Positions 28,179 to 29,542 of a stretch of DNA of 64,000 nt are shown piece after piece. The DNA comes from Escherichia phage 4MG. The notes below the pieces were generated by a model. The model saw only the letters and a program-made list of their open reading frames with translations, ran no database searches and was not told where the DNA came from. The stretch lies in sequence record NC_022968.1; one strand, 5' to 3'. A program made the translations under genes and the position numbers. Numbering within the stretch: the stretch's first letter is position 1; each line of letters starts with the position of its first letter.

Positions 28179-28257
28179 ATGCGTGGATGGGAGTCGAACC
28201 CACAATTTTCGGCTTATGAGGCCAACGTGATCTATATATCCGTTTCACTAACACGCA
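28179..28257 (-). tRNA. tRNA-Met or Ile2 (anticodon CAT), extended D-region
   Basis: hand-folded: T-loop TTCGACT, anticodon loop CTCATAA, CCA encoded; D-loop about 14 nt. Confidence 0.55.
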
Positions 28258-28266
28258 ATTGTTTGG

Positions 28267-28339
28267 TGGGACCGGGTGGACTCGAACCACCGACCATCTG
28301 CTCTTCAGGCAGGCACTCTACCAACTGAGTTACAATCCC
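28267..28339 (-). tRNA. tRNA-Phe (GAA)
   Basis: T-arm GGTGG/TTCGAGT/CCACC, anticodon loop CTGAAGA, A73, CCA encoded. Confidence 0.75.
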
Positions 28340-28349
28340 ATAAGATTGG

Positions 28350-28420
28350 TACTTCCTGGTAGAATCGAACTACCGCAACTGCCGTGTAAAGACAGGGTTC
28401 TACCATTAAACTAAGGAAGC
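28350..28420 (-). tRNA. tRNA-Val (TAC)
   Basis: T-loop TTCGATT, anticodon loop TTTACAC, CCA encoded. Confidence 0.7.
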
Positions 28421-28430
28421 ATTAAGGTGG

Positions 28431-28504
28431 TGGGCGACAGGGGACTCGAACCCCCAAAATTCGGAATCTAAATCCGACACGTATACCAATTCCATCAATC
28501 GCCC
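28431..28504 (-). tRNA. tRNA with Leu-type anticodon TAG but short (5 nt) variable arm
   Basis: 74 nt cloverleaf, anticodon stem TCGGA/TCCGA, loop TTTAGAT, A73, CCA encoded. Confidence 0.55.
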
Positions 28505-28616
28505 ATAAATGTTTGGAAGCCCATACTGTCTTCCTGATCAGCCAGAATCCTTTTCTAGCATTATCATCGGCCCTGTAGATCCTATCATTAGCCAGGGGAT
28601 CGACGCCTTAATTTGG

Positions 28617-28689
28617 TGGAGCCACTGAGAATCGAACTCAGTTCTACAAGGTGCAAGCCTGTGATTTTATCCAAATAAACTACAGCCCC
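28617..28689 (-). tRNA. tRNA-Ala (TGC)
   Basis: anticodon loop CTTGCAC; G3:U70 pair present; CCA encoded. Confidence 0.75.
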
Positions 28690-28696
28690 ATGTTGG

Positions 28697-28769
28697 TGCA
28701 AGTACAGGGATTCGAACCCCGATTCTCAGCTTCGTAAACTGATGCTCTGTCCAGTTGAACTATACCTGC
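28697..28769 (-). tRNA. tRNA-Arg (ACG)
   Basis: T-loop TTCGAAT, anticodon loop TTACGAA, CCA encoded. Confidence 0.7.
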
Positions 28770-28778
28770 TAAAATTGG

Positions 28779-28853
28779 TCGGAGCGGCAGGATTCGAACC
28801 TGCGACCCAGTGCATCCAAGGCACCCACGCTGACCAGACTGCGCTACGCTCCG
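28779..28853 (-). tRNA. tRNA-Pro (TGG)
   Basis: T-arm GCAGG/TTCGAAT/CCTGC, anticodon loop CTTGGAT, perfect acceptor pairing, CCA encoded. Confidence 0.75.
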
Positions 28854-29040
28854 AAGGTGCAGAATTTTAATTATCCCAGATACTGCAACTGGTATCGCTG
28901 GCTAGCTAATTTGATCCGCTCTGGTCACCTCGTGTGACATTGCAGACAGGCTAACCTATTCTGCAAGAGCGTATTGGGTTTGATACGTCGAACTCATTTT
29001 GAGTGCCTTCCGGCAATTTACATCAACATATCAAATTTGG

Positions 29041-29111
29041 CGGGAACTTCCTGACTCGAACAGGAGACAACCGCAGCACAAGCGGCCATTATGCCCCTTA
29101 ACTAAATTCCC
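29041..29111 (-). tRNA. tRNA with anticodon GTG (His-type) but G73 and C37, atypical
   Basis: T-arm TCCTG/actcgaa/CAGGA on plus strand, anticodon loop TTGTGCT, CCA encoded. Confidence 0.45.
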
Positions 29112-29118
29112 AATTTGG

Positions 29119-29191
29119 CGGAGATACCGGGCATCGAACCCGGAACATACCCGTGACAGGGGTGTATTTTATCCGTTTAAACTATATCTCC
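29119..29191 (-). tRNA. tRNA-Asp (GTC)
   Basis: anticodon loop CTGTCAC, perfect acceptor pairing GGAGATA/TATCTCC, CCA encoded. Confidence 0.75.
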
Positions 29192-29199
29192 AAATTTGG

Positions 29200-29285
29200 C
29201 GGTTCCTGAAGGATTCGAACCTTCGTTGTGGATTGCTCCAGGCAGGTTAACAGCCTGCTACCATCGGCCTCTCGGTCAAAGAACC
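29200..29285 (-). tRNA. class II (long variable arm) tRNA carrying Asn anticodon GTT
   Basis: 86 nt; T-arm GAAGG-TTCGAAT-CCTTC, anticodon arm GCAGG-CUGUUAA-CCUGC, 17-nt variable arm with 4-bp stem, G73, CCA encoded. Confidence 0.55.
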
Positions 29286-29458
29286 ATGTAATTACTTTAT
29301 CAGTCAAAACAACCTTTTGCAAGAATTATTTCAACTTATTTTCAATTTGGCGGGATCTGAGGGTTTGCACCTCACCTACGGTCCTGGATGCCCGTCATTC
29401 TGCTCCGCTGGTTGCCGTCGCATTTCCAGCCTCATTAAACTATCGTCCCGTTGTATGG

Positions 29459-29542
29459 TGGGTCGGGTGGGATTCGAACCCAACGATCCCTCGATTAAAA
29501 GTCGAGTGCCTTAGACATACGTCGCCGCTTGGCTACCAACCC
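29459..29542 (-). tRNA. tRNA-Lys (TTT) candidate with extended D-region (84 nt)
   Basis: T-loop TTCGAAT, anticodon arm CTCGA/CTTTTAA/TCGAG, CCA encoded; D-loop region about 18 nt. Confidence 0.45.

Follow-up and report, generated by a model that had tools for sequence, protein, structure and literature searches.

Two conserved tRNA genes of Escherichia phage 4MG carry an extra element between G19 and A21 that forms a mini-hairpin in tRNA-Lys(UUU)

Class II transfer RNAs (tRNAs; Leu, Ser and bacterial Tyr) carry a fifth helical element off the tRNA core that is tolerated by synthetases, EF-Tu and the ribosome; this extra arm occupies the variable region (positions 44–48) and is an identity element. 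Here we describe two tRNA genes that likewise carry an extra element, but one that lies inside the D-loop and is accompanied by a short variable region. Both are on the minus strand of a 64,000-nucleotide (nt) stretch of Escherichia phage 4MG (NC_022968.1), the whole of which is referred to as the window: a gene with anticodon CAU (28176–28257) and a tRNA-Lys(UUU) gene (29456–29542). Standard D-loops measure about 7–11 nt, and the standard numbering provides for extra residues only at 17a, 20a and 20b. The tRNA-Lys extension is a structured mini-hairpin, more than a long loop.

Phage tRNAs have recently been recognised as counter-measures to tRNA-cutting immunity (PARIS, retron Eco7, PrrC), and anticodon nucleases classically target tRNA-Lys(UUU), which PrrC, for example, cleaves. 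To our knowledge, point changes close to the cleavage site have so far been the only explanation offered for tRNA escape. AriB, the effector of PARIS, cuts tRNA-Lys(UUU) along with the tRNAs Thr(UGU) and Asn(GUU), in each case between positions 40 and 41; in an AlphaFold 3 model the second AriB monomer sits on D-loop residues U16-U17, and the U16C substitution impairs cleavage (PMC12409363). Phage T5's tRNA-Lys(UUU), which neutralises PARIS (PMC11464382), resembles the window gene in belonging to a large tRNA array and in differing from the host tRNA at sites read by the nuclease, including C16 (PMC11464382; PMC12409363). It is unlike the window gene in having the usual length (78 nt including CCA) and a 10-nt D-loop, and in escaping through U39A, A41C and U16C. 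The window tRNA-Lys, in contrast, keeps U39-C40 and carries a 10-nt hairpin, and a T5-type resistance is putative here. A D-arm of unusual size that serves as a recognition feature is also described for tRNA-Sec and other non-canonical tRNAs in the D-loop and D-arm passages of a review (PMC7609411); there the D-stem of tRNA-Sec is lengthened to 6 bp and its loop shortened to 4 nt, unlike in the window genes, and within those passages neither D-loop extensions nor phages are mentioned. Neither full-text literature searches nor the two PARIS papers, an eLife paper on anticodon-loop mutations and the review of non-canonical tRNAs yielded any account of extended or hairpin-bearing D-loops in phage tRNAs.

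The two genes are part of an array of about 27 tRNA genes on the minus strand (28176–34878) of this Seunavirus-like phage. The 4.5-kb region around them shares 92% identity with Cronobacter phage GAP31 (a Seunavirus of the Vequintavirinae) and matched 150 phage records. ARAGORN with default settings called 25 genes in the array and neither of these two. Using the Rfam covariance model RF00005 (threshold 29 bits; E values from an 8-kb search), we recovered both as full-length matches (model positions 1–71 of 71) at exactly 28179–28257 and 29459–29542, where the initial annotation had placed a Met-type and a Lys(TTT) gene with extended D-regions. The CAU gene scored 45.0 bits (E = 3e-7) and the Lys gene 50.5 bits (E = 9e-9). 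The sole large insertion in each fold was in the D-loop, 9 nt in the CAU gene and 13 nt in the Lys gene against 2 model positions, and all inserted bases followed G18G19. The lengths to the discriminator are 79 nt (U73) and 84 nt (A73), as first proposed; because both genes encode CCA, the full genes are those at 28176–28257 and 29456–29542.

A purpose-written heuristic cloverleaf parser, which resolved 20 of the about 27 tRNAs in the window, agreed with the initial annotation on D-loops of 14 nt for the CAU gene (AACGGAUAUAUAGA, 28231–28244) and 18 nt for the Lys gene (AGCGGCGACGUAUGUCUA, 29512–29529). These values exceed the canonical range, within which fell the 18 other resolved tRNAs of the window (7–10 nt) and 569 of 588 surveyed phage tRNAs (7–11 nt). 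The position of the extension can be given more narrowly than before: it lies between G19 and A21, where the Rfam alignment and parser place the extra bases AUAUAUAG of the CAU gene (28232–28239) and where an indel in the orthologue alignment places the mini-hairpin GAC-GUAU-GUC of the Lys gene (10 nt long, inserted after G18-G19-C20, 29514–29523), with GAC and GUC paired by RNAfold. The variable regions, described from the outset as having no long arm, are AAAUU (5 nt) in the CAU gene and GGAUCG (6 nt) in tRNA-Lys, neither reaching the at least 10 nt forming a stem-loop that characterise class II.

Outside the extension both genes keep a canonical architecture. Stems of 7, 4, 5 and 5 bp are retained, as are U8, A14, R15:Y48, G18G19, A21 and a UUCRANY T-loop, all of which are invariant or nearly so across the orthologue alignments. 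The anticodon loops CUCAUAA (anticodon at 28216–28218) and CUUUUAA (29497–29499) have 7 nt, U33 and a purine at 37. The acceptor, anticodon and T-arms, initially called good, are so overall without being perfect, since the Lys T-stem contains a bulged U and the CAU gene a U7xC66 mismatch. Among 10 distinct CAU orthologues, 99.5% of alignment cells in the cloverleaf were paired, with 10 compensatory pairs, three of them in the acceptor stem; no shuffle, nor any displacement of the 3′ partners by 1–3 columns, approached the observed covariation score. Among 25 distinct hairpin-bearing tRNA-Lys sequences, 98.7% of cells were paired and 17 of 21 pairs were compensatory, including all seven acceptor pairs. 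In both alignments the observed score was matched by none of 500 shuffles. The hairpin-bearing tRNA-Lys set also conserves U8, A14, G15, G18, G19, A21 and C48, which leaves the canonical core whole, with the hairpin as an addition to it. Both tRNA genes are conserved and subject to purifying selection; each has a canonical core to which an element is added between G19 and A21, and on the sequence evidence they are best read as functional tRNAs.

The suspicion that such long D-loops merely betray decaying pseudogenes or wrongly placed 5′ ends draws on the lack of a default ARAGORN call and on the one imperfect pair in each gene. It is refuted, and we give it next to no credence: the covariance scores are well over the threshold, the genes are kept in 28–33 phage genomes, and compensatory changes occur in every stem, acceptor included. 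No alternative 5′ acceptor strand or normal-length fold exists for either gene, as the acceptor pairs of the long-D-loop cloverleaf covary (3/7 in the CAU gene, 7/7 in tRNA-Lys). Relaxed ARAGORN settings read the CAU gene as Ala(GGC) and the Lys gene as Glu(CUC). Both calls are misfolds, given that the CUCAUAA and CUUUUAA loops and their flanking 5-bp stems are conserved and covarying.

The tRNA-Lys hairpin appears in the orthologue alignment as a clean indel. The window gene is 100% identical to the GenBank tRNA-Lys of GAP31, EC152 and FENT2, and 9–12 extra nucleotides are present in the tRNA-Lys of the window, GAP31, SSE121, PVP-SE1, pEa_SNUABM_55 and pEp_SNUABM_01. Orthologues without the hairpin, 76–77 nt long, occur in Hena1, Ro1, KB57, DP, Mydo and Av-05. 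The insert is found in Seunavirus and two Henunavirus phages and is missing from Hena1, Mydovirus and Avunavirus; it was acquired within the Vequintavirinae. Selection could conceivably act on the DNA instead, with the insertion altering the target of a homing endonuclease in tRNA-Lys genes and so conferring immunity to cleavage. In pEp_SNUABM_01, Klebsiella phage DP and Hena1, HNH open reading frames do lie against tRNA-Lys or overlap it (homing-endonuclease frames at tRNA-Lys: locus L005, 1994–2416; L008, 2591–3037; L006, 4362–4526), and the T5 tRNA region contains three H-N-H endonuclease genes. Neighbouring HNH genes, however, stand next to both hairpin and hairpin-less alleles, and a DNA-level role would not select RNA pairing with G-U closing pairs (UGAC...GUCG in SSE121 and PVP-SE1) or a GNRA loop. 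We consider this role very improbable.

Substitutions within the insert follow the pairing. PVP-SE1 has GAC-GCAA-GUC, and a near-identical tRNA on an IMG/VR contig (L018) has GUC-GUAU-GAC, the middle pair being flipped by two compensating substitutions. We then sampled IMG/VR with sequence patterns tied to two D-stem types. One pattern, which required a tRNA-Lys(UUU) whose D-stem resembles that of E. coli and whose GG is followed by 7 nt or more, matched 35 contigs; leaving aside two non-tRNA matches, these have hairpins at the same site with differing stems (GAC/GUC, GUC/GAC, GC/GC, CC/GG, GGA/UCC, GGC/GCC, GAUG/CAUC and GCA/UGC) and mostly GNRA loops. The module is present in about 25 distinct phage tRNA-Lys(UUU) sequences as a covarying stem of 2–4 bp, usually with a GNRA loop, and extends to unrelated tRNA-Lys bodies with an E. 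coli-like D-stem. Anticodon UUU and discriminator A73, which with U35 as the key base make up the bacterial LysRS identity set, are kept in the window gene and in all 25 hairpin-bearing homologues. Cultured phages searched for a hairpin tRNA-Lys of the E. coli type yielded normal-length tRNA-Lys only; in Aeromonas phage LAh_6 the tRNA-Lys gene is ordinary and unannotated.

When 21 distinct hairpins were aligned on the tetraloop, the closing pair was present in all 21 and the second pair in 20, the latter as GC, AU, CG and UA. The covariation score was 0.477 against 0.136 for shuffles and was reached by 0 of 500. The loops GAAA, GCAA, GGAA and GUAA accounted for 16 of the 21, and the subgroup with a CC/GG stem contains all four GNAA variants. 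Four pair types at the second hairpin position are hard to obtain otherwise, and we conclude from these comparisons that the tRNA-Lys insert itself is evidently under structural selection. Two features of the sampling weigh against this reading: the register was set by hand on the tetraloop, which favours structure, and the sequences were gathered by pattern. An unguided search for the longest stem in the inserts was weakly above expectation (mean 2.74 against 2.22 for shuffles, standard deviation 0.19). That register was rejected, as it chose spurious A/U stems, and tetraloop anchoring was needed instead.

Extra D-loop sequence in a tRNA-Lys gene is also found in archaea, some of whose tRNAs have non-canonical D-loop inserts that are bulge-helix-bulge introns cut by a splicing endonuclease that bacteria lack. 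The Thermofilaceae tRNA-Lys L171, with 23 nt between GG and the 3′ strand of the D-stem, is a probable example; we take this stretch to be an intron. The position can therefore host removable sequence in other domains, which lends some colour to the idea that the phage nucleotides are a mini-intron spliced after transcription. By inspection, however, the phage insert, a 3-bp stem closed by a 4-nt loop, cannot supply the two 3-nt bulges and the 4-bp helix between them that make up a bulge-helix-bulge, and its length falls far below that of a group I intron. Nor do we know of a suitable splicing endonuclease for such inserts in enterobacteria or their phages. Splicing is thus a highly unlikely account, and the phage insert, unlike the archaeal introns, is predicted to remain in the mature tRNA.

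Scans in which the anticodon was left free point to a restricted distribution. An anticodon-blind D-arm pattern (UAGCUCAGUUGGUU, then 5–20 nt, then AGAGC) matched 58 IMG/VR contigs, about 27 of them with genuine expansions; 25 of these have the anticodon UUU, and the rest are one giant-virus tRNA and L163, which has the same hairpin with an 8-nt anticodon loop. The other matches were normal D-arms with a chance downstream GAGC. L163 (IMGVR_UViG_3300046479_000013, minus strand, about 11634–11730) combines a CC-GCAA-GG D-loop hairpin with the anticodon loop CGUAAAAC and may have arisen from the hairpin tRNA-Lys lineage as a recoded or frameshifting form. In 85 loci fetched through the CAU pattern, none of 383 tRNAs other than Lys(UUU) and CAU had a D-loop above 12 nt, and one of 12 tRNA-Lys(UUU) had a D-loop of 21 nt. 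The Lys pattern matched 17 stretches in 185,579 bacterial and archaeal genomes (one per species), three of them plausible hairpin tRNAs: L174, from a metagenome-assembled genome, belongs to a phage-like array in which 13 tRNA genes are densely packed, and L170 and L180 have one or two other tRNA genes beside them. The other 14 were mostly partial duplications, masked bases or non-tRNA sequence, with one probable archaeal intron and one truncated gene. In 5,426 complete E. coli genomes we found no match to either window gene. Hardly any hairpin modules occur outside viruses or with an anticodon other than UUU, and hairpin-bearing phage tRNA-Lys is a widespread class that seems not to have been described.

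Standard annotation has a blind spot here. ARAGORN misses or miscalls the hairpin module in every contig checked; when it miscalls genes with these long D-loops, the CAU type included, it returns Ala(GGC), Glu(CUC), Leu(AAG) or a truncated Lys. On three phage contigs that each carry an ordinary and a hairpin-bearing tRNA-Lys(UUU), it reported only the ordinary copy (L104 and L112) or called the hairpin copy with a shifted frame (L105). GenBank labels vary likewise. The GAP31 and PVP-SE1 records list a tRNA-Met (82 nt) and a tRNA-Lys (86–87 nt), the GAP31 tRNA-Met being identical to the window CAU gene, so that the genes are already annotated in some records. The CAU gene appears as tRNA-Ala (ggc) in MN732867 (Hena1), MK024806 (Mydo), OP480062/OP480063, MZ602147, ON602736 and OP558001, and is unannotated in KB57, EC152, KP12, SSE121 and the EspYZU phages. 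The tRNA-Ala label of the orthologue in Hena1, Mydo and pEa_SNUABM_55 follows from the same misfold as the relaxed ARAGORN call and is an annotation error caused by the long D-loop. Between missed calls, miscalls and wrong or absent labels, phage tRNA repertoires and the codon-usage analyses built on them are biased.

The extension of the CAU gene is of another kind, being A/U-rich and unstructured. Its 82-nt orthologues are found in Seunavirus, Mydovirus, Henunavirus and the T5-like Vibrio phage VPT02, and an IMG/VR contig completes the set of 10 distinct sequences; across these the D-loop is invariant except for C/U at position 16, while the stems vary. The window gene is 100% identical to the copy in Mydovirus KB57 (L007, 1224–1305), the surrounding array being only about 84% identical, which suggests very strong constraint or recent exchange. 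An IMG/VR scan with the D-stem GUGA/UCAY and a CAU loop returned 88 contigs. The stretch after G18G19 was 3–5 nt in 41 sequences; in 21 it measured 9 nt (AUAUAUARA and variants), and nine had 11 nt (AUAUUUAUAAA and variants).

Such a graded A/U-rich series (AUUA, AUAUA, AUAUAUARA, AUAUUUAUAAA) is what would be expected if both extensions were functionless and merely tolerated, the stretch between G19 and A21 being permissive and (AU)n slippage in the CAU gene, or insertion of a small palindrome in tRNA-Lys, having been fixed by drift. The normal-length tRNA-Lys of sister lineages is in keeping with this, as is the marginal stability of the isolated hairpins, with whole-tRNA fold z-scores of only -1.2 to -1.4. 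Drift does not, however, predict compensatory changes and GNRA conservation within the insert, recurrence at the same site in unrelated tRNA-Lys bodies, near-exclusive restriction to the UUU anticodon, or a 14-nt CAU loop that stays invariant across phage families with diverged stems. We rate neutral tolerance as unlikely, while according it more weight than any of the other rivals.

That the CAU loop is so strictly conserved in sequence agrees better with sequence-specific reading than with bulk. This favours the view that the insert is a positive recognition handle by which a phage or host factor (a modification enzyme, a repair ligase or kinase, a processing enzyme, or a nuclease with which the phage destroys host tRNAs while sparing its own) tells phage from host tRNA. 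GNRA tetraloops are classical docking elements for proteins and RNA, and the presence of normal and hairpin tRNA-Lys(UUU) together on L104, L105 and L112 would also suit a handle. We identified no candidate partner, though, and the stem of the hairpin varies freely in sequence and length, the loop class alone being kept; moreover, the phages that carry the module are very different, which makes one common dedicated protein unlikely. We regard a handle as rather improbable.

The CAU gene was compared with initiator tRNAs. A weak or mismatched 1:72 pair, G2:C71, C3:G70 and A73 are the acceptor-end determinants of bacterial initiator tRNA, the first three being determinants of formylation. Among 46 fully parsed members of the CAU family, 1:72 is weak or mismatched in 43, G2:C71 is present in 40, C3:G70 in 36 and A73 in 31; the window gene has U1:A72 (a Watson-Crick pair), G2:C71 and C3:G70, with U73 in place of A73. 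It also has G:C, G:C and C:G at the three consecutive anticodon-stem pairs 29:41, 30:40 and 31:39, where the full set of three G:C pairs occurs in 0 of 46 family members. The initiator A11:U24 is not present, the D-stem GUGA/UCAC giving U11:A24, as in the family generally. The T5 initiator tRNA fMet (tRNAfM; AY543070, 32428–32505) is similar in its 5′-UGCG, its weak or mismatched 1:72 (U1xU72 in T5, U1:A72 in the window), G2:C71, C3:G70, U73, encoded CCA and an anticodon stem without three consecutive G:C pairs. It is unlike the window gene in its D-arm (GAUC/GAUC with a 9-nt loop and no extension), and direct sequence similarity is low. Near-universal U8 is replaced by G8, together with A9 or G9, in 25 of the 46 family members (for example L012, L019, L033 and L042); the Vequintavirinae members retain U8.

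Like T5, the window has a separate CAU gene of the Ile2 type, in which lysidine modification by TilS makes the CAU anticodon read AUA, beside the Met-type one. This second gene (34802–34878, minus strand) is 79% identical to E. coli tRNA-Ile, resembles the window tRNA-Ile(GAU) and shares the 5′ end of T5 tRNA-Ile2; judged by these resemblances it is probably an AUA decoder, not the Met tRNA that ARAGORN and GenBank make of it. A tRNA-Ile2 identity was rejected for the gene at 28179, which matches nothing in the 5,426 E. coli genomes, the 34802 gene being the Ile2-like one instead. Because the second CAU gene is Ile2-like, the gene at 28179–28257 is most likely the phage's sole Met-type tRNA, belonging to an initiator-like, phage-specific lineage; in the formal sense it is a putative member of the initiator family.

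We suggest, tentatively and with a confidence somewhat short of even, that both are functional tRNAs with an outward add-on that blocks defence nucleases. The two tRNAs would be transcribed within the minus-strand array and matured with a full canonical core, the extra nucleotides bulging outward between G19 and A21 without breaking the elbow formed by the D-loop and T-loop. Positions 16, 17 and 20 would form a variable pocket at the outer corner of the L-shape, and the insert would project there. Recognition by LysRS and MetRS, through anticodon and acceptor end, and use by the ribosome should be unaffected, by analogy with class II tRNAs, whose long variable arm is tolerated. The protrusion could, on the other hand, alter a surface that tRNA-directed defence nucleases of the host or a rival phage need for docking, and the phage might thus go on decoding AAA/AAG and AUG while host tRNAs are cut. 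In the case of tRNA-Lys(UUU), PARIS AriB is the candidate nuclease that can be named most concretely, and hairpin and C16 together might block it sterically beside 16-17. The window tRNA-Lys does have C16, a G at position 41 and the hairpin beside 16-17, and it keeps the U39-C40 core of the AriB site; the window's tRNA-Thr(UGU), like its tRNA-Asn(GUU), has another base at 39, a single anecdotal contrast.

Several observations weigh against such shielding. Retention of U39-C40 is equal in hairpin-bearing (13/27) and ordinary (11/23) phage tRNA-Lys(UUU), so there is no sign of the hairpin replacing escape mutations in the anticodon stem, and for this reason we put shielding forward as a hypothesis. 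Sister phages on similar hosts (Mydovirus, Hena1) have a normal tRNA-Lys. We know of no nuclease that reads the D-loop of an initiator tRNA, and the A/U-rich CAU extension looks like a product of repeat slippage. With these points in mind, we place shielding between doubtful and nearly balanced, ranked above neutral tolerance and above the handle, decoy, mini-intron and DNA-level readings. The narrower proposition is doubtful though possible, namely that the GNRA hairpin is a dedicated shield, gained repeatedly, against nucleases directed at tRNA-Lys (PARIS AriB, possibly PrrC or RloC) that it would keep from docking at the variable pocket, and that the variable-arm hairpins of phage tRNA-Asn(GUU), Thr(UGU), Trp and other tRNAs follow the same strategy at another site.

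A nuclease or toxin might instead be bound and titrated by these tRNAs as decoys whose main use is not translation, and over-expressed viral tRNAs have been raised as possible competitive inhibitors of AriB (PMC12409363). The window nonetheless contains no other tRNA-Lys(UUU) or Met-type tRNA, making these genes the array's only suppliers of those decoders, and the elements for aminoacylation and tertiary contacts are fully conserved, which renders decoys improbable. Should shielding by a D-loop protrusion be correct, it would constitute a second, architecture-based route of tRNA counter-defence beside point substitutions, one overlooked by standard tRNA finders. Of the nuclease targets, tRNA-Lys(UUU) is the one known best, and a virus-specific, recurrent hairpin on it suggests a structural mechanism open to direct test; cultured carriers of the module (PVP-SE1, GAP31 and SSE121) make experiments feasible. 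The finding also bears on how much extra D-loop RNA the ribosome and synthetases tolerate.

Extra hairpins were also seen in the variable region of phage tRNAs. The window tRNA-Asn(GUU) (29197–29285, minus strand; 89 nt) has a 17-nt variable region with the hairpin UGGA-GCAA-UCCA, whereas cellular tRNA-Asn has a short variable loop. The arm is present in almost all Vequintavirinae examined, with differing stems (GAGU-GAAA-ACUC, GAGC-GAAA-GCUC, GGGA-GCAA-UCCC). Variable arms of 14–25 nt, often GAAA or other GNRA hairpins, occur on many phage tRNAs of cellular class I type: Trp (L004, L018, L067), Thr UGU (L073, L098), Glu (L045, L098), Gln (L098), Cys (L023), Arg CCG (L049, L064), Pro (L051) and Ile UAU (L062). 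In loci fetched through the CAU pattern, and hence unbiased for other isoacceptors, the variable region was at least 10 nt in 16 of 354 class I tRNAs.

Further features of the array concern its end and its less regular members. A hairpin resembling an intrinsic terminator (28115–28132, minus strand), with seven G-C pairs followed by UUUUCUUUUU, lies 44 nt downstream of the CAU gene. Given this strong terminator, the CAU gene is the last of the array, and transcription of the tRNA unit probably stops at the hairpin. Between tRNA-Lys and tRNA-Asn, the spacer (29343–29455, minus strand) begins with GGGACGAUAGUUUAAUG, finishes with CAGAUCCCGCCA and includes GAGG-UGCAAAC-CCUC, which recalls a degenerate T-arm; the spacer has the look of a tRNA remnant interrupted by a large insertion. 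It had no Rfam match and folded no better than shuffles, and folding of this spacer and of the one at 28505–28613 gave nothing beyond chance. At 30264–30333 (minus strand) lies a 70-nt tRNA-like sequence that scores 38 bits in Rfam and in which ARAGORN reads a two-base anticodon; its counterpart in the GAP31 record is a pseudogene, labelled tRNA-OTHER. A sub-threshold match at 30428–30498 (minus strand; 27.2 bits), where GAP31 has an annotated tRNA-Gly, and a second His(GUG)-like gene at 29988–30063 (minus strand), called only by relaxed ARAGORN settings, may be divergent or decaying tRNA genes. Finally, tRNA-Ile(GAU) (30505–30581, minus strand) has C33 instead of the near-universal U33 in its anticodon loop CCGAUAA, and the same C33 is found in GAP31, KB57, DP, Mydo, Hena1 and pEa_SNUABM_55.

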